Part shown: in pieces, positions 2,327-63,594 of the stretch
Layout: the number at the start of each line of letters is the position of its first letter
Numbering within the stretch: position 1 is the stretch's first letter
Sequence record: MW822011
DNA length: 64,000 nt
Source: Shigella phage TB004
Direction: 5' to 3' (one strand)
The notes under the pieces: generated by a model
Told to the model about the DNA's origin: nothing
Databases searched by the model: none
Seen by the model: the letters and a program-made list of their open reading frames with translations, nothing else
Program-made: the position numbers and the translations under genes

Positions 2327-3039
2327 ATGAAACTAATCTTTTTAAGTGGTGTAAAGCGTAGTGGAAAAGATACTACTGCAGATTTTATCATGAATAATTA
2401 TTCTGCAGTTAAATATCAACTTGCTGGTCCTATTAAAGATGCATTGGCTTATGCATGGGGTGTATTTGCAGCAAACACTGACTATCCTTGTTTAACTCGT
2501 AAAGAGTTTGAAGGAATTGACTATGATCGTGAAACTAATTTAAATCTGACTAAATTAGAAGTAATTACGATTATGGAACAAGCATTTTGCTATCTTAATA
2601 GTAAAAGCCCAATTAAAGGTGTGTTTGTTTTTGATGACGCAGTTAATTTCGTAGCATTTAACAAGATTGCTGACGTTATAAATAATATTGAAGATCAATG
2701 GTCAGTCCGTCGTCTGATGCAAGCCCTAGGTACGGATTTGATTGTTAATAACTTCGACCGCATGTATTGGGTAAAATTATTTGCTTTAGATTATCTTGAT
2801 AAATTTAACTCAGGTTATGATTATTATATCGTTCCTGATACTCGTCAAGATCATGAAATGGATGCGGCTAGGGCGATGGGTGCTACAGTAATTCATGTAG
2901 TTCGTCCTGGTCAAAAATCCAATGATACTCATATTACAGAAGCTGGATTGCCAATTCGTGATGGCGATTTAGTAATTACAAACGATGGTTCTCTTGAAGA
3001 ACTTTTTTCTAAAATTAAAAATACACTAAAGGTACTATA

Positions 3040-3040
<1 letters not shown>
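2327..3040 (+). CDS. 1: deoxynucleoside monophosphate kinase gp1
   Basis: 237 aa, P-loop GVKRSGKDT; N-terminus matches recalled T4 gp1. Confidence 0.85.
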
Positions 3041-3737
<697 letters not shown>

Positions 3738-3740
3738 TTT

Positions 3741-3781
3741 CACAAAGTTATTTACACGGGGTTTTAGTTGTGATACTATTA
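3741..3781 (+). promoter_or_regulatory. early promoter upstream of ipI
   Basis: TTTACA -35-like element and GATACTAT -10 region shared with other early promoters in window. Confidence 0.45.
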
Positions 3782-3815
3782 CCCTATCAAAACAAATGAG
3801 TGATTGGAGAATAAA

Positions 3816-4088
3816 ATGAAAACATTTAAAGAATTTATCAATGAAGCTACTTTTAACGAAAAAGTAAAAATTAGTAAAGCTGTCAAGACTTTGATTGCTG
3901 ACATCAATTACCTATATGATATTGATTTAACTGACTATGTAACAGTTGGTAACAAACGTAACTTTTTCGTGTTTGACATCTCTGAACTTGACCAGAATCA
4001 AATTAACAACATTGAGCGTTTTGCTAATGATAAGGGTCTTCGTCATGAGTCAGCGGGTTATAAAAAATACGCAATTTATTTAAAATGA
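3816..4088 (+). CDS. ipI: internal protein I (capsid-targeted, IPI-like)
   Basis: N-terminal capsid targeting sequence MKTFKEFINE; locus after 57B. Confidence 0.7.
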   Translation: MKTFKEFINEATFNEKVKISKAVKTLIADINYLYDIDLTDYVTVGNKRNFFVFDISELDQNQINNIERFANDKGLRHESAGYKKYAIYLK

Positions 4089-4527: not shown

Positions 4528-4713
4528 ATGAAACGTTGTGAATTAATTCGAAATGTTGCTATTGCAATTTCTGCTTCCGCTTTTAGTTTTTCAATGTTTG
4601 TTGGATTTATATGCGGATTATTAACTACAGCAGAAAATGTGTTTTCACTTGTAGTAGCATTTTTAATTGGTTTAATTGCTATCGTTATGGATAAAATTTC
4701 TAAAGGTGAATAG
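4528..4713 (+). CDS. small hydrophobic membrane protein
   Basis: 61-aa ORF with GGAG RBS, mostly hydrophobic. Confidence 0.45.
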   Translation: MKRCELIRNVAIAISASAFSFSMFVGFICGLLTTAENVFSLVVAFLIGLIAIVMDKISKGE

Positions 4714-4714
4714 A

Positions 4715-5095
4715 ATGTATAAAGTGTATGCGGATTATCAGGCTAATCCATCTGAAAAGCCAGGTTGTCAAATTGGATGGGCTCATGATACTTTGCTTGA
4801 AGCAGTAGATGCTGCTCAAAAATTGGGATATAAATATGTAGAGATTGTTCAACCGTCAGGAAAAGTTATTACTCTTGAAGAGTTCAATAACATTAAACCA
4901 AACTTTTTACTTTTTGCAGGTGATAATTATTATCCTCGTGGTGGATATGCTGATTTAATCGCGAAAGCCGCCACTGAAGATGAACTCCGTGATATTATCA
5001 AAGAAAATGAAAACAAACTGATGTATGGTTCTAATCGCTTTGATTGGTGGCAAATTGTAAATGCCCATACTCATACTATTGTTGATGAAGGCTGA
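4715..5095 (+). CDS. hypothetical protein
   Basis: 126-aa ORF from ATG 4715 with GGTGA RBS. Confidence 0.5.
   Translation: MYKVYADYQANPSEKPGCQIGWAHDTLLEAVDAAQKLGYKYVEIVQPSGKVITLEEFNNIKPNFLLFAGDNYYPRGGYADLIAKAATEDELRDIIKENENKLMYGSNRFDWWQIVNAHTHTIVDEG

Positions 5096-11419: not shown

Positions 11420-11438
<19 letters not shown>
11070..11438 (+). CDS. small membrane protein, paralog family member 3
   Basis: 122 aa from ATG 11070, TM helices, C-terminal FITECRKLK. Confidence 0.5.
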
Positions 11439-12405
<967 letters not shown>

Positions 12406-15124: not shown

Positions 15125-15345
15125 TGGCAAAGATAATTATTGAAGGTTCTGAAGATGTGTTAAATGCTTTCGCCGAGTGGTTTAGTAATTCAGGCGAACA
15201 GCAATTTAATGAAGCGTGGAATATGGGTGATATTGATGGAATTTATCCTACGACAGAAATTTCTGTTCAAGGATATGGAATTCATGAGCCTATTCGTTTA
15301 GTTGAATATGATTTAGGTACTGGTGAGGAAGTAAAATATGATTGA
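15124..15345 (+). CDS. hypothetical protein
   Basis: 73-aa ORF, overlapping start/stop. Confidence 0.45.
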   Translation: MAKIIIEGSEDVLNAFAEWFSNSGEQQFNEAWNMGDIDGIYPTTEISVQGYGIHEPIRLVEYDLGTGEEVKYD

Positions 15346-15604
15346 AGATATTAAGGGTTATAAGCCACATACTGAAGAGAAAATCGGTAAAGTGAATGCT
15401 ATTAAAGACGCTGAAGTTCGTTTAGGACTTATCTTTGATGCTTTATACGACGAATTCTGGGAAGTGCTAAATAATTGTGAAGACTATGAATTCGCGAAGA
15501 ATTATGCTGAAAGCATCGATCAGTTAACTATTGCTAAAACGAAACTCAAAGAAGCCAGTATGTGGGCTTGTCGTGCTGTGTTCCAACCAGAGGAAAAATA
15601 TTAA
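15338..15604 (+). CDS. hypothetical helical protein at vs.4 position (candidate Acb2-type nucleotide sponge)
   Basis: 88 aa; second ORF upstream of regB, matching recalled position of T4 vs.4. Confidence 0.35.
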
Positions 15605-15884: not shown

Positions 15885-15915
15885 GTTTACTTTTCCTCTT
15901 GACTGTGGTATAATT
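15885..15915 (+). promoter_or_regulatory. early promoter upstream of regB
   Basis: GTTTAC -35 and TATAAT -10. Confidence 0.55.
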
Positions 15916-16410: not shown

Positions 16411-16956
16411 ATGAGAAAAGCACTACTCGCTGGTCTATTGGCCATTTCAATGATGGCACATAGCTCCGAGCATACTTTCAGTAATGTCCAACTCGATAAC
16501 ATGCGTTACGCGTATCAATTCGGGGAACAATTTTCTAAGGATGGAAAATATAAAACACATAAAAATATCCACAAGAGCGGATTAGGTCATATAATGGCTG
16601 CTATTTTATGGCAAGAAAGCTCCGGCGGAGTTAATTTAAAATCTAAACCAAAGCATCACGCCTATGGAATGTTCCAAAATTATTTGCCGACCATGCGAGC
16701 AAGAGTTAAGGAACTTGGTTATAATATGACCGATGCCGAAATAAAAAGAATGTTGAATAAACGGTCCAATTCAGCTTCCTGGGCGTACATTGAACTTTCT
16801 TATTGGTTAAATATACATAAGGGCGATATAAGAAAAGCAATATCCTCTTATAATTCGGGATGGAATGTTAAAGCAGGTTCTAAATATGCTTCTGAAGTCC
16901 TAGAAAAGGCTAACTACCTTAAAAATAATAAACTACTGGAAATAGTAAATGACTAA
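16411..16956 (+). CDS. secreted lytic transglycosylase (SLT domain)
   Basis: signal peptide; SLT motifs WQESSGG, YGMFQ, SYNSGW. Confidence 0.65.
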   Translation: MRKALLAGLLAISMMAHSSEHTFSNVQLDNMRYAYQFGEQFSKDGKYKTHKNIHKSGLGHIMAAILWQESSGGVNLKSKPKHHAYGMFQNYLPTMRARVKELGYNMTDAEIKRMLNKRSNSASWAYIELSYWLNIHKGDIRKAISSYNSGWNVKAGSKYASEVLEKANYLKNNKLLEIVND

Positions 16957-17296
16957 AATTTTGGTTTTATGTATAGGATTAATTTCATTTTCTGCTTCTG
17001 CGTCAGCAGATACATCATATACTGAAATTAGAGAATATGTAAACCGTACTGCCGCGGATTATTGTGGGAAAAATAAAGCATGCCAAGCTGAATTTGCGCA
17101 GAAATTAATATATGCATATAAAGACGGAGAAAGAGATAAAACAAGTAGATACAAGAACGATACTTTATTAAAACGATATGCTAAAAAGTGGAATACCTTA
17201 GAATGTTCAGTTGCGGAGGAGAAAGATAAAGCCGCTTGTCATTCAATGGTTGACCGTTTGGTAGATTCTTATAATCGAGGATTGAGTACTAGATGA
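16949..17296 (+). CDS. secreted protein (vs position)
   Basis: 115 aa, N-terminal signal peptide ...SASASA. Confidence 0.45.
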   Translation: MTKILVLCIGLISFSASASADTSYTEIREYVNRTAADYCGKNKACQAEFAQKLIYAYKDGERDKTSRYKNDTLLKRYAKKWNTLECSVAEEKDKAACHSMVDRLVDSYNRGLSTR

Positions 17297-17772
17297 TTGT
17301 AAAATATATCAAGGGCGATATTGTCGCCCTATTTCTTCAAGGTAATATTATTGCGCACGGGTGCAATTGTTTTCATACTATGGGTTCAGGTGTAGCGGGT
17401 CAATTAGCAAGGGCCTATCCTAAAATTTTAGAAATAGATAAAACCACTACTGAGTACGGTTCTCGCGATAAATTAGGCGATATGTCTATTGTTTTTAAAC
17501 ATAGTCCTACGGGATTTGGCATATGCTATAACCTGTATACGCAATACGAACCGGGTCCTAATCTTGATTATGGTGCTTTAGTAAACTGCATGATAGAATT
17601 AAATCTACAGGCAGAAACCCTTTTGTTTAAACCAGTAATTTACATTCCACGCATAGGTTGTGGTATTGCTGGCGGCGATTGGGATAAGGTTTCTAAATTA
17701 ATCGACATGTTTACTCCTGATATTGATTTAATAGTGGTGGATTATGAAAGCACATTACCCGCATCCGTTTGA
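17293..17772 (+). CDS. macro domain protein (ADP-ribose binding/hydrolase fold)
   Basis: GDIVALFLQGNIIAHGCNCFHTMGSGVAGQLARAYP and IPRIGCGIAGGDW resemble macro domain motifs. Confidence 0.55.
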   Translation: MIVKYIKGDIVALFLQGNIIAHGCNCFHTMGSGVAGQLARAYPKILEIDKTTTEYGSRDKLGDMSIVFKHSPTGFGICYNLYTQYEPGPNLDYGALVNCMIELNLQAETLLFKPVIYIPRIGCGIAGGDWDKVSKLIDMFTPDIDLIVVDYESTLPASV

Positions 17773-17956
17773 CCCTAAAAACAAAGCAGAAATTATTCGT
17801 CAATGGGAACGCATTTGCCGTACTAAATGCCCAATTAATAGTCCACATGATGTAGATAAAGACTATATTGGAACATTCGTTGAATATACCTTTATTGATA
17901 AGAAAGGTCGTAAACAGCACGTAGAAGAATATTGCTTAAAGGTTACATGGTTATGA
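17744..17956 (+). CDS. hypothetical protein
   Basis: 70-aa ORF. Confidence 0.4.
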   Translation: MKAHYPHPFDPKNKAEIIRQWERICRTKCPINSPHDVDKDYIGTFVEYTFIDKKGRKQHVEEYCLKVTWL

Positions 17957-18159
17957 GCCAAACTAGTATTCTTAAAAATGCGCATTGTGAAAAGTGTAAA
18001 TGGCCTGTTGTTTTTGCTTTATGCAATGATGAAATGGCTTGTGATTTCGATTATTGGTGCTATTGTTCTAATAAAGGATGCATAAATCATAAAGGCGAAG
18101 GATTTTATTCGGGATTTTATCCTTATCCCGATTTCATTAAAGAAGGTAAACCAAAATGA
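17947..18159 (+). CDS. Cys-rich small protein (putative zinc-binding)
   Basis: CEKC...C-x-C...C...C pattern; AAGG RBS. Confidence 0.4.
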   Translation: MVMSQTSILKNAHCEKCKWPVVFALCNDEMACDFDYWCYCSNKGCINHKGEGFYSGFYPYPDFIKEGKPK

Positions 18160-18329
18160 ATAATTTTGAGTTACAATATGAAGTGTTACGTGAGCTTGAT
18201 AATTTAATTGAACTCGCTGTTAATAAAGGTTTTGCCATTGGAATTGGTCAAAAAGATACTGATCATTTAACTATGGAAATATTTAAGCAAAAGCGAATTA
18301 TTTTAAAACTTCTGGAAATTAATATATGA
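18156..18329 (+). CDS. hypothetical small protein
   Basis: 57-codon ORF coupled to neighbours by ATGA overlaps. Confidence 0.35.
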   Translation: MNNFELQYEVLRELDNLIELAVNKGFAIGIGQKDTDHLTMEIFKQKRIILKLLEINI

Positions 18330-18511
18330 GTCTAAGCATTAGTCAGAAAAGTAGATTATTTGAGCTTATTCATGAACTTCTAGATGAGCATGCAGAAGCA
18401 AACACCTTTTATGATGAATACGGCCCGCTATCTCCCGAACAACAGGAAGAATTTGCTGACCGGTTTGATAAGAAAGAAAACGAATTAATAGCTTATGTGA
18501 ATACGCTTTAA
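18326..18511 (+). CDS. hypothetical acidic protein
   Basis: 61-aa ORF. Confidence 0.4.
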   Translation: MSLSISQKSRLFELIHELLDEHAEANTFYDEYGPLSPEQQEEFADRFDKKENELIAYVNTL

Positions 18512-18520
18512 GAAGGTGAT

Positions 18521-19102
18521 ATGGCTAGTTTAATTTTTACTTATGCAGCAATGAATGCTGGAAAATCTGCTTCTCTTTTGACTGCTGCACATAATTATAA
18601 AGAACGCGGAATGAGTGTATTAGTTCTTAAGCCTGCTATTGATACTCGCGATTCTGTTTGTGAAGTCGTTTCTCGCATTGGAATTAAACAGGAAGCGAAT
18701 ATTATTACGGATGATATGGATATTTTTGAGTTCTATAAATGGGCTGAAGCACAAAAAGATATTCATTGTGTATTTGTAGATGAAGCCCAGTTTTTAAAAA
18801 CTGAACAAGTGCATCAATTAAGTCGAATTGTTGATACATATAATGTTCCTGTTATGGCTTATGGTCTAAGGACTGATTTCGCTGGAAAATTATTTGAAGG
18901 TTCTAAAGAACTTTTGGCGATTGCAGATAAACTTATTGAACTAAAGGCAGTTTGTCATTGCGGTAAAAAAGCGATTATGACGGCTCGATTAATGGAAGAT
19001 GGAACACCAGTTAAAGAAGGTAATCAAATCTGTATTGGTGATGAAATTTATGTTTCTTTGTGCAGAAAACATTGGAATGAATTAACTAAAAAGCTCGGTT
19101 AG
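18521..19102 (+). CDS. tk: thymidine kinase
   Basis: 193 aa, P-loop AAMNAGKSAS, C-terminal Cys cluster; matches T4 Tk. Confidence 0.92.
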   Translation: MASLIFTYAAMNAGKSASLLTAAHNYKERGMSVLVLKPAIDTRDSVCEVVSRIGIKQEANIITDDMDIFEFYKWAEAQKDIHCVFVDEAQFLKTEQVHQLSRIVDTYNVPVMAYGLRTDFAGKLFEGSKELLAIADKLIELKAVCHCGKKAIMTARLMEDGTPVKEGNQICIGDEIYVSLCRKHWNELTKKLG

Positions 19103-30367: not shown

Positions 30368-31297
30368 ATGAAAACTCGTAAACATTATATTGATTATTTT
30401 GACAGTCTTATTACTAAACACCGCAATTATCAGATCGGACACAGAGCAGTAATCAATAATATTCTTCGTGATTTCCTTCAATATGTTGGCCAGGAAAATC
30501 ATATCTGTAAAGATACTCAAAACGCTTATTCTCATTCGTTAGGTAATTTGCTCGAATGGTTTAAACGTTCTCGTTTATTATCTTCTACTGTGGCTCGCGA
30601 TAACATTAAAAACTTTATGAAGCCAAGCTTCATTAAAACTACGACATCTATAACCGATTTGGTTGAATTTACTATTGTTAACGATGTTAAAAAGACCCAT
30701 TTGGCTGATTGGTTATCTACCATTCCTGAAACTAAATTTGCTGATAAATTTGCTTGTCAATTCAATACCCAAGTGAATATGCTTTTTAAGCATGCTCGCA
30801 AACTATTTACCGCGGGCGATGACCGTACAAATACAGTTCATGTTAAGGATTGGGTTATTGCTGATGAAGTAACACACAAGCCAGGTGGTTCATCAGTGTT
30901 AATTAATATCCAGGTTCCTTATTATTACTCACGTAATCTCGGCACCATGACAGCTAAAGAAATTAATAAGCACAACAAAACTATTCGTTCGTTGTCTTAT
31001 AAACTTCGCATGATGTTAAAAATTATGGACGTAGTGGAAATGTATGACGAAATCGAAGATAATGGTTCAATGTTATACAGTTCACGCATTCTAATCAAAC
31101 TGAAGAACCTTAATGCATATAAGACAGTTGTAAAAGAGCCTAAAGTAGAAAAGGTTGATAACCTGAGCGAAGAACGTGAATATCTCAATGCTCGCTTAAT
31201 TGAAGTTGAAGCTCAGATTGCCGAACACACTAAATTGTTAAAAGCTCTTAATGCAAAAGCAAATGGTTTACGTAATGCTATTGAGGTATTGAAATGA
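30368..31297 (+). CDS. tandem paralog 4, C-terminal coiled coil
   Basis: 309 aa; SRLLSSTVARDNIKNF. Confidence 0.5.
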   Translation: MKTRKHYIDYFDSLITKHRNYQIGHRAVINNILRDFLQYVGQENHICKDTQNAYSHSLGNLLEWFKRSRLLSSTVARDNIKNFMKPSFIKTTTSITDLVEFTIVNDVKKTHLADWLSTIPETKFADKFACQFNTQVNMLFKHARKLFTAGDDRTNTVHVKDWVIADEVTHKPGGSSVLINIQVPYYYSRNLGTMTAKEINKHNKTIRSLSYKLRMMLKIMDVVEMYDEIEDNGSMLYSSRILIKLKNLNAYKTVVKEPKVEKVDNLSEEREYLNARLIEVEAQIAEHTKLLKALNAKANGLRNAIEVLK

Positions 31298-37788: not shown

Positions 37789-37965
37789 ATGGTTGATAAA
37801 GAGATTAAAAGGGACCAGTATTATCGTGTTAACGGACATATTGTTATTGTTACAGCAGTAGATGATCTAGATGTTCATTATACTGTACTTAAATGGAACA
37901 AACACATGATTTGTGACCGTGCTGTATTTAGTTCAGTTGCTAAGGAAATTAAACTCCATGGGTAA
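37789..37965 (+). CDS. hypothetical small protein
   Basis: 58 aa, GAGGA RBS. Confidence 0.35.
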   Translation: MVDKEIKRDQYYRVNGHIVIVTAVDDLDVHYTVLKWNKHMICDRAVFSSVAKEIKLHG

Positions 37966-59270: not shown

Positions 59271-59564
59271 ATGAAAAAATTTATCTTTGCTGCAATTTTT
59301 GCCTTATCTTCTTGTGCTGCTCAGCCTGCTATGGCGGGTTATGACAAAGATTTGTGTGAATGGTCTATGACTGCAGATCAGACTGAGGTTGAAACTCAAA
59401 TTGAAGCGGATATTATGAATATCGTTGAGCGTGATCGTCCTGAAATGAAAGCTGAGGTACAAAAACAACTTAAGTCTGGCGGTGTAATGCAGTATAATTA
59501 TGTTCTGTATTGCGATAAAAACTTTAATAATAAAAATATCATCGCTGAAGTGGTAGGTGAATAA
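59271..59564 (+). CDS. sp: spackle-like periplasmic lipoprotein
   Basis: 97 aa, signal peptide with LSSC lipobox; size and position as recalled for T4 sp. Confidence 0.6.
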   Translation: MKKFIFAAIFALSSCAAQPAMAGYDKDLCEWSMTADQTEVETQIEADIMNIVERDRPEMKAEVQKQLKSGGVMQYNYVLYCDKNFNNKNIIAEVVGE

Positions 59565-60175
59565 TGCTCTATCAAATGCACAAGTGCAAAGATACATACA
59601 AATATAAAGGTGCCCAGTGTTATATCATTAATCGTGAAAACGCGGGTCCAGGTCATTCACATCAATCACGGTTTGTATTCGTTAAAAACAATGAAATTAT
59701 AGCAGTTGCTAATTACATGCTTGTGACTAATGATGTTAATCCAGTGCCTTTTACATATTATAATCTAATGGATTTGGCGTACGATTATAATTGGTTTAAT
59801 CATGATACTTTGGCTCATATTGAAGGCGTAGGATTTGACATCTCTTATTCTAGTTACTCGTTGTGTCCTATGAGCCGAGCTCATAAAGAGCCTGAATATT
59901 TTTCATTTCGTCGGCGCGTAGACTTTAAACGCAGCACAGAGTATGTCGGTGGAATCTTTGTTAAAGATAATCGAATTACTCGCATTATTTATCCTTTGGG
60001 CTGTGGTCAAAAAGATATTGATGTTGATTTAGACTTTACTGAAAACATCATTAATCATATTGCTTCTGTGTATTTTGATATTGATCACAAAATTGTAATA
60101 TGTGGATATGAATTACCATCAGAAAAACAGTCTATTGATGACCAAATTTTTAATGCTTTTATGAATAGAGGTTAA
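59564..60175 (+). CDS. hypothetical protein (61.2 position)
   Basis: 203 aa. Confidence 0.5.
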   Translation: MLYQMHKCKDTYKYKGAQCYIINRENAGPGHSHQSRFVFVKNNEIIAVANYMLVTNDVNPVPFTYYNLMDLAYDYNWFNHDTLAHIEGVGFDISYSSYSLCPMSRAHKEPEYFSFRRRVDFKRSTEYVGGIFVKDNRITRIIYPLGCGQKDIDVDLDFTENIINHIASVYFDIDHKIVICGYELPSEKQSIDDQIFNAFMNRG

Positions 60176-63075: not shown

Positions 63076-63594
63076 ATGCCACATTTCAACGAATGTAGTC
63101 AACTGATCGAAGGCGCCGATAAAGCTCAAAATGAATACTGGGATATTCTCGGTGATGAAAAAGACCCACTGCAGGTTATGCTTGATATGCAGAAATCTTT
63201 GCAGGTTCGTTTAGCTAAAGATAAACCTGAATATAACCGTCATCCTGATGATTTGGCTACTGCAGGCGAAGTTGTTGATTGGCTGCGTAATCAGAAAGAT
63301 TACATTGATGATGAATTCCGCGAACTTCTGACTTCTCTTGGTGGTATGAGCAATGGTGAAAAAGATGCATCTGCTGTATGGAAGCCTTGGAAGTCGCAGC
63401 ATGGTGAACGCCGTGAAACTCTAATTACTGATTTGTCTCCTCAAGACCAGTTGGAAATTAAATTCGAAATGATTGATATTCTTCATTTCGTTCTGAACAT
63501 GTTCCAAGGTCTCGGCCTTACTGCTGAAGAAATCTTTAAACTTTATTATTTGAAGAATGCTGAAAACTTCGCTCGTCAAGATCGAGGTTATTAA
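63076..63594 (+). CDS. 56: dCTP pyrophosphatase gp56
   Basis: 172 aa; matches recalled T4 gp56. Confidence 0.85.
   Translation: MPHFNECSQLIEGADKAQNEYWDILGDEKDPLQVMLDMQKSLQVRLAKDKPEYNRHPDDLATAGEVVDWLRNQKDYIDDEFRELLTSLGGMSNGEKDASAVWKPWKSQHGERRETLITDLSPQDQLEIKFEMIDILHFVLNMFQGLGLTAEEIFKLYYLKNAENFARQDRGY

Follow-up and report, generated by a model that had tools for sequence, protein, structure and literature searches.

DarTG systems stop phages by ADP-ribosylation of DNA. The toxin DarT2 modifies thymidine in single-stranded DNA, and DNA that carries this modification cannot be replicated (PMC13309987). T-even phages carry layered countermeasures, namely AdfA (gene 61.2), AdfN (gene 30.3) and Tk.4/AdfM, and the last of these is the subject of this report. 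Within a 64,000-nucleotide stretch of Shigella phage TB004 (sequence record MW822011; hereafter the window), an open reading frame (ORF) is recognizable from its sequence and gene order as tk.4 (adfM) of a T4-like Tequatrovirus.

An A1pp match in tk.4 orthologs was reported in a comparative paper of 2006 (PMC1524935), and T4 RefSeq describes the gene with the words "contains A1pp phosphatase motif". In the HIDEN-SEQ preprint of 20 November 2025, tk.4 was the single significant match when a T4 transposon library was screened on a DarTG2 host. A clean knock-out of tk.4 sensitised T4 to DarTG2, and the gene was renamed adfM, for anti-DarT factor Macrodomain (bioRxiv 10.1101/2025.11.20.689424). 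The name AdfM was given independently to PhiKZ gp104, which in vitro strips the ADP-ribose installed by DarT2 from an oligonucleotide with a TNTC motif and which relieves DarT2 toxicity (Cell Rep 2026, PMC13309987). The macrodomains SCO6735, DarG and TARG1 all reverse thymidine-linked ADP-ribosylation of DNA (PMC9411070).

Both the macro domain of tk.4 and its anti-DarTG2 function are already known. Because this role has been published, the window adds detail and not discovery, and what is added here is a deep allele replacement and a Gln-type catalytic centre.

Macrodomain fold and catalytic centre

The ORF listing of the window holds an ATG-started frame of 159 amino acids, and its translation contains both KGDIVALFLQGNIIAHGCNCFHTMGSGVAGQLARAYP and IPRIGCGIAGGDW. 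The original prediction, which a model made from the letters alone, had given these motifs and the coordinates of the frame exactly, and had correctly placed the gene in the vs-tk region; the frame lies between vs and tk.3 and upstream of tk. It recognized a macrodomain but not the named T4 gene tk.4, for which A1pp/macro has been on record since 2006. The local order regB, vs.1, vs, the ORF, tk.3, ..., tk is the order found around tk.4 in T4 and T2, which identifies the ORF as the tk.4 ortholog. Its position between vs and tk.3/tk is syntenic in Tevenvirinae.

The macro fold of the protein is established. The Pfam Macro profile (PF01661) reaches 32 bits, above its gathering cut-off of 22, with E=1.3e-7 and a match that spans positions 2-117 of the 118 in the profile. 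PHROG 335 matches at E=1.2e-71, and chance can be dismissed as a source of these scores. An AlphaFold2 model (61 homologs) with a mean predicted local distance difference test score (pLDDT) of 94.4 and a predicted template modelling score of 0.89 has the alternating strand/helix pattern of a three-layer alpha/beta/alpha macro fold, with which the fold search agrees. Profile, predicted structure and fold search thus all bear out the earlier macro-fold call.

Conservation was assessed in an alignment of 61 diverse homologs. Residues H22, G23, N25, C26, G33, A35, D49, G62, N80, Y82, Q84, P119, G122, G124 and W130 are invariant, and A126, G127 and G128 are conserved in at least 90%. Both Gly-rich loops, MGSGVAG (G31, G33) and IGCGIAGG (G122, G124, G127, G128), are intact, with these glycines either invariant or at least 90% conserved. 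Neither of the failures that the original prediction had named as fatal, loss of the Gly-rich loop or absence of a macro-domain match, was encountered. The second loop, IGCGIAGGDW, matches IGCGLAGGKW of Bt_1257 and IGCGLDRLQW of TARG1. The closest structural and sequence neighbours of the protein all belong to the ALC1-like class (TARG1/DarG/Poa1p/SCO6735), and Tk.4 of the window is an orphan single-domain macrodomain of this class as defined in PMC9411070.

Homologs of Tk.4 are present in 2,789 deposited phage genomes and in 777 protein clusters at E<=1e-5, and an identical protein is already in GenBank from phage PBM-1. A homolog from a Felixounavirus (Salmonella phage BPS15Q2, compared locus 2495-3280) is 261 amino acids long and joins a Tk.4-type macrodomain (HGCNC, NLYTQ) to a C-terminal extension of ~100 amino acids, for which no Pfam or PADLOC match was found. 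Its two-domain layout recalls DarG, and by analogy the extension might be a toxin-binding module.

The catalytic centre of Tk.4 was compared with those of its relatives in a MAFFT alignment that took in DarG, TARG1 and PhiKZ and in a profile-to-PDB alignment with TARG1 and Bt_1257. Glutamine 84, in the NLYTQ motif, occupies the column of TARG1 Lys84 (LITK), DarG Lys80 (NFPTK) and a Gln of Bt_1257 (NMIGQ). Its counterpart in SCO6735 is Q85, an equivalence that we take from PMC9411070; the Q85A mutant is inactive, and a water-activating mechanism distinct from the Lys route has been proposed for that enzyme (PMC9411070). Since the Tk.4 family has an invariant Gln in place of the DarG/TARG1 Lys, as SCO6735 does, its members are not enzymes of the DarG type, and they probably follow the Gln chemistry of SCO6735 and not the Lys chemistry of DarG. 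Asparagine 25 aligns with the catalytic-site Asn of DarG and of PhiKZ AdfM (N23), where an N23A mutation reduces activity (PMC13309987).

SCO6735 and Bt_1257, Gln-type hydrolases of thymidine-ADP-ribose in DNA (PMC9411070), share the Gln at the catalytic position with the Tk.4 family. However, they carry a mobile loop ~5-6 residues longer that defines their subclass and that the Tk.4 family lacks (in Bt_1257 a 6-residue insertion stands directly after the Gln), and they protect the host genome, whereas Tk.4 is phage-encoded and serves counter-defence. In alignment, the Tk.4 family is thus a Gln-type enzyme with a loop of DarG/TARG1 length, and a Tk.4-type AdfM acting as a Gln-type DNA ADP-ribosylglycohydrolase with a short loop would be a catalytic variant new to biochemical characterisation.

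DarG of the DarTG2 systems of Thermus aquaticus and M. tuberculosis has its catalytic Lys80 in an FPTK motif where window Tk.4 has Gln84 (NLYTQ). DarG also has a C-terminal DarT-binding domain that window Tk.4 lacks, and its gene is paired with the darT toxin gene, whereas window tk.4 has vs and tk.3 as neighbours. The NCBIfam DarG equivalog NF048014 gives only 27.7 bits where its cut-off is 250, with a match limited to positions 2-142 of the 338 in the profile, and the PADLOC DarG model scores 27.5 bits (positions 3-144 of 329). An assignment of window Tk.4 as DarG is ruled out by the missing C-terminal domain, catalytic Lys and adjacent toxin gene.

Human TARG1 (OARD1/C6orf130) is of the same class and size as Tk.4, with a strong profile match (6e-17), and it too can remove thymidine-linked ADP-ribose from DNA (PMC9411070). 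Its Lys84/Asp125 catalytic dyad is absent from window Tk.4, however, where these columns hold Gln84 and Ala126. H22 and T29 of Tk.4 align with H23 and S30 of Poa1p, and the same His is also present in the DNA hydrolase Bt_1257.

PhiKZ gp104 is likewise a phage orphan macrodomain that counters DarTG2, with a catalytic-site Asn common to both (N23 = N25). It nevertheless belongs to the DarG-type clade (E=9e-25 to M. tuberculosis DarG; FPTK Lys motif), whereas Tk.4 falls in a different clade. Its match to the Tk.4 profile is weak, 35 bits compared with 202 bits for T4 Tk.4, and BLASTP returned a single 23-residue match. PhiKZ AdfM is imported into the phage nucleus, a compartment that has been described only for chimalliviruses and that is not known in T4-like phages. 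Membership of window Tk.4 in the gp104 family is ruled out, as gp104 is of the DarG clade. The name AdfM is thus in use for two non-orthologous proteins, T4 Tk.4 (Gln-type) and PhiKZ gp104 (DarG-type), which their sequences place as independent recruitments from different branches of one class.

A divergent allele in a T4-like backbone

The entire window keeps the T4 gene order from gene 53 to soc, and in a gene-by-gene comparison most proteins are at least 95% identical. The 3.3 kb around tk.4 have 97% nucleotide identity to Tequatrovirus genomes such as EcNP1 and HY01. Window Tk.4, in contrast, has only 56.6% amino acid identity to T4 Tk.4 in a global alignment, and 58% over 155 amino acids without gaps by BLASTP (E=2e-70), while the surrounding proteins regB, vs.1, vs, tk.3, tk and rI.1 are 99.3, 100, 99.1, 94.3, 99.5 and 100% identical to those of T4. 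Among full-length orthologs in the window, tk.4 thus ranks third in divergence from T4, exceeded only by tk.2 (49%) and trna.3 (55.5%).

Window Tk.4 is 70.6% identical to the protein of Dhakavirus VR5, more than to that of T4, whereas the flanking genes are 45-68% identical to their VR5 counterparts. As tk.4 is nearer to VR5 than to T4, and nearer to VR5 than any flank is, the lineage of the allele departs from that of the genome. By sequence comparison, a deep allele that is nearer to the Dhakavirus gene has been swapped in at tk.4 of the window. At least three allele classes exist in deposited phage genomes, with 312 records at least 90% identical to the window protein, 224 at least 90% identical to T4 and 159 at 80-90% to T4. 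The AlbertHofmann-type allele is 84.5% identical to T4, and metagenomic clusters show intermediate identities of 82, 79, 76, 73 and 65%.

Homing-endonuclease genes lie near the variable region in related phages. A seg-like gene stands between tk.2 and tk in VR5 (compared locus 3135-3872), and mobD is located ~3.7 kb downstream of tk.4 in T4 (compared locus 430-1209). Gene conversion driven by such endonucleases could be a route of tk.4/tk.2 allele exchange.

Despite their divergence, the two alleles agree in locus and motifs. T4 Tk.4 has the same arrangement (vs, tk.4, tk.3, with overlapping stop and start), belongs to the same PHROG 335, is of similar length (155 versus 159 amino acids) and shares the invariant motifs HGCNC, NLYTQ and PRIG.GI..G.W. 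The differences are that the T4 loop reads IGAGIGKGNW where the window allele has the canonical IGCGIAGGDW, and that the window protein has four extra C-terminal residues, with a 29-nucleotide overlap with tk.3 compared with 4 nucleotides in T4. Window and T4 agree at 28 of the 31 positions that are at least 90% conserved in the family, and the remaining three are all departures by T4 (C123A, A126G, G127K), none being found in the window copy. Window Tk.4 is therefore at least as canonical as the T4 protein shown genetically to work, which supports a transfer of function.

A tentative extension, which we regard as unlikely, is that the tk.4 allele classes found in near-identical Tequatrovirus backbones are functionally non-equivalent, each being tuned to its own set of DarT2 variants or of further DNA ADP-ribosyltransferases that act on thymidine or on bases, perhaps by binding the toxin directly as well as by hydrolysis. 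If this were true, the tk.4 cassette would be an arms-race hotspot exchanged between phage genera.

Probable hydrolysis of DNA-linked ADP-ribose and the alternatives

We favour, with a probability of about 0.78, the reading that tk.4 encodes an early-made ALC1-like macrodomain that hydrolyses the thymidine-ADP-ribose left by DarT2 on phage DNA and thereby counters DarTG2. The protein is made early in infection, within the regB-vs-tk transcription unit. In a DarTG2 host, released DarT2 would ADP-ribosylate thymidines in TNTC motifs of single-stranded phage DNA, and replication would be blocked. Tk.4/AdfM would bind the ADP-ribose through its two Gly-rich loops and hydrolyse the thymidine-ribose bond, freeing ADP-ribose and restoring replicable DNA, so that it would be in effect a phage-borne antitoxin. 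Catalysis would most likely be of the SCO6735 type, with Gln84 positioning the distal ribose and an activated water and with Asn25 contributing; the Lys-dependent route of DarG and TARG1 would be unlikely for Tk.4.

Reversal of DarT-type DNA ADP-ribosylation, which the original prediction proposed, had already been published with genetic support for the T4 ortholog, whose knock-out is sensitive to DarTG2. The solved relatives SCO6735, DarG and TARG1 reverse thymidine modification, and hydrolysis of thymidine-ADP-ribose is therefore the most likely mechanism for Tk.4. We infer that the 57%-identical window allele does the job of T4 Tk.4, that the chemistry is that of a DNA glycohydrolase and that Gln84 has the role given above.

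Several points weigh against this interpretation. A genetic requirement against DarTG2 has been reported for T4 alone, in a preprint that used a single DarTG2 system and particular growth conditions (M9 medium, 30 C) and whose authors infer enzymatic removal of ADP-ribose from DNA with the words "seems likely" (bioRxiv 10.1101/2025.11.20.689424). The tested protein is only 57-58% identical to window Tk.4, and the literature reports enzymology for no Tk.4-type protein. As the catalytic Lys of DarG is missing from the Tk.4 family, the analogy to the DarG mechanism is indirect, and in sequence Tk.4 resembles the Poa1p phosphatase about as closely as it does the DNA hydrolases. Finally, thousands of phages conserve tk.4 even though most of their hosts have no DarTG2, and a broader or further role is therefore conceivable.

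The alternative that fares best, although still improbable, is that Tk.4 is mainly non-catalytic and either binds and inhibits DarT2 directly or sequesters ADP-ribose-derived molecules, with allele divergence reflecting co-evolution with toxin surfaces. Inhibition of DarT in vitro persists in catalytically dead forms of SCO6735, DarG and TARG1, and is strongest with SCO6735 (PMC9411070), and the swapped cassette sits in an otherwise T4-identical backbone with its allele-variable positions outside the conserved active-site motifs. However, every catalytic-site residue is invariant among the 61 homologs, which argues for selection on catalysis, and Tk.4 lacks the C-terminal toxin-binding domain of DarG. 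Inhibition of DarT2 could also add to catalysis instead of replacing it, and is plausible as an extra activity.

Removal of ADP-ribose from proteins or RNA is very doubtful. Tk.4 might then reverse or tune the phage enzymes Alt, ModA and ModB, or undo the action of a host ADP-ribosyltransferase on phage proteins. T4-like phages encode three such transferases, of which modA and modB appear in the T4 annotation, and tk.4 is early, like these putative makers of its substrates. Alt, ModA and ModB are arginine-specific, however, and Arg-ADP-ribose is cleaved by ARH/DraG-type enzymes; ALC1-like macrodomains are not known to cleave this linkage. Because the modification is arginine-linked and the TARG1 Lys84/Asp125 dyad for cleavage of Glu/Asp esters is absent (Q84, A126), reversal of Alt/Mod is unlikely, and the second suggestion of the original prediction, that the gene tunes the phage's own transferases, found no support. 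TARG1 and SCO6735 do act on protein substrates too (PMC9411070); tk.4 mutants show no reported growth phenotype without DarTG2 (bioRxiv 10.1101/2025.11.20.689424).

It is just as doubtful that Tk.4 is a small-molecule enzyme, either an ADP-ribose-1''-phosphate phosphatase like Poa1p (hence the "phosphatase" label) or an O-acetyl-ADP-ribose deacetylase, that tidies NAD-derived metabolites and does not act on DNA. Many macrodomains have weak Appr-1''-p phosphatase activity in vitro that carries no physiological meaning. The similarity to Poa1p is real but no stronger than to the DNA hydrolases, its phmmer match lies mainly in the N-terminal half, and the NCBIfam deacetylase models reach 15.7 bits against a cut-off of 291; moreover, the sole tk.4 phenotype in a genome-wide screen is specific to DarTG2 (bioRxiv 10.1101/2025.11.20.689424), and a phosphatase role would explain no phenotype.

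A Nudix hydrolase gene, nudE, is located at 11420-11872, 5.4 kb upstream of tk.4. It is 94% identical to its T4 counterpart, which is annotated as active on ADP-ribose. It is speculative that NudE disposes of the ADP-ribose that Tk.4/AdfM would free.

Gene environment, annotation and other variable loci

Table 1. Features at and around tk.4, with positions in the window
Feature	Position	Strand	Remarks
vs	16949..17296		Upstream neighbour of tk.4; vs stop and tk.4 start overlap as ATGA
GAGGA, Shine-Dalgarno-like	17277..17281	+	11 nucleotides 5' of the ATG, within the vs 3' end; putative ribosome-binding site
tk.4/adfM coding sequence	17293..17772	+	Stand-alone macrodomain protein, 159 amino acids; stop codon included
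Divergent allele cassette	17332..17763	+	40-82% nucleotide identity to T4 and T2, flanks 96-100% (sliding identity profile)
First ADP-ribose-binding loop	17356..17391	+	Codons H22-G33, HGCNCFHTMGSG; includes invariant N25
Q84 (CAA)	17542..17544	+	Invariant NLYTQ motif; aligns with catalytic Lys of DarG (K80) and TARG1 (K84); SCO6735 has essential Gln85
Gly-rich diphosphate-binding loop	17653..17682	+	Codons I121-W130 (IGCGIAGGDW)
tk.3	17744..17956		Downstream neighbour; the last 29 nucleotides of tk.4 overlap tk.3
tk	18521..19102		Downstream of tk.4 and tk.3

The GAGGA upstream of the start is kept in T4, EcNP1 and VR5. VR5 and a Klebsiella T4-like phage also retain the junction at which the vs stop overlaps the tk.4 start. 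A perfect, GC-rich inverted repeat of 7-8 bp, AGGGCGA-TATTG-TCGCCCT, followed by a T-rich stretch, lies 20 nucleotides into the coding sequence (17312-17330) and is conserved in T4, EcNP1 and VR5; it coincides with the conserved KGDIVAL codons. Considered as a terminator-like hairpin, it was rejected, its stability being no better than that of shuffled sequence (z=-1.5; 18 of 200 shuffles equally good). Because of this, and because it sits on the KGDIVAL codons, we take the hairpin to be a by-product of coding. A promoter scan found no enrichment of sigma-70-like sites over shuffled sequence (12 versus 14.0 +/- 3.8), the sole notable site lying upstream of regB (15886-15914). With the site count at the shuffled-sequence level, we make no claim of a dedicated tk.4 promoter.

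The gene has been annotated inconsistently. In EcNP1 RefSeq (NC_054910, 10475-10867) and some Shigella phage records it appears as a 130-amino-acid "phosphatase" that begins at the internal Met30, a start that would delete the invariant HGCNC motif. A natural 5' truncation or frameshift (the 130-amino-acid EcNP1 product, cluster P0002) is ruled out, because EcNP1 and the window have the same DNA sequence throughout the start region. With the full 159-amino-acid ORF open, the short coding sequence is an artefact of start-site annotation. GenBank labels for tk.4 include "phosphatase", "RNase III inhibitor", "macro domain protein" and "hypothetical". In a 2026 preprint T2 tk.4 goes under the name "putative thymidine kinase"; the same work reports pairing of its mRNA with the host small RNA ArcZ and detection of the protein in infected cells. 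Identification as adfM corrects the misleading labels "phosphatase", "RNase III inhibitor" and "putative thymidine kinase", and knowing that the ORF is adfM helps to predict the host range of therapeutic T4-like phages on DarTG2-positive strains.

A second variable block (17914-18536) is located just downstream of tk.3. Two small ORFs (17932..18159 and 18156..18329) are present in the window and T2 and missing from T4, tk.2 of the window is only 49% identical to T4 tk.2, and nothing in the window matches T4 tk.1. Other full-length orthologs that diverge from T4 in a backbone of ~97% identity are trna.3 (4700-5092; 55.5%), nrdC.3 (30368-31294; 61%), 55.6 (37789-37962; 71%) and the gene 56 dCTPase (63076-63591; 73%). 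From their identity levels these look like swapped allele cassettes resembling tk.4, and trna.3 and nrdC.3, which have no known function, could be candidates for roles in host interaction.

Several T4 genes, namely b-gt (beta-glucosyltransferase), ipI, e.7, e.8, 49.2 and 49.3, gave no tblastn match in the window, where their neighbours are present, and for denV no match spans more than 30% of the T4 protein at best. Absence of b-gt, with a-gt present at 98% identity, suggests that DNA is glucosylated in a pattern unlike that of T4.

Other anti-defence genes accompany tk.4. Gene 61.2 (59564-60172; 95% identical to T4) corresponds to the anti-DarT factor AdfA (PMC11825919). The window thus contains two anti-DarT genes, 61.2/adfA and tk.4/adfM, while AdfN (gene 30.3) is encoded elsewhere in the genome. 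In addition, vs.4 (15338-15604), 95.5% identical to that of T4 and 1.7 kb upstream of tk.4, encodes what we take to be the anti-CBASS sponge Acb2.
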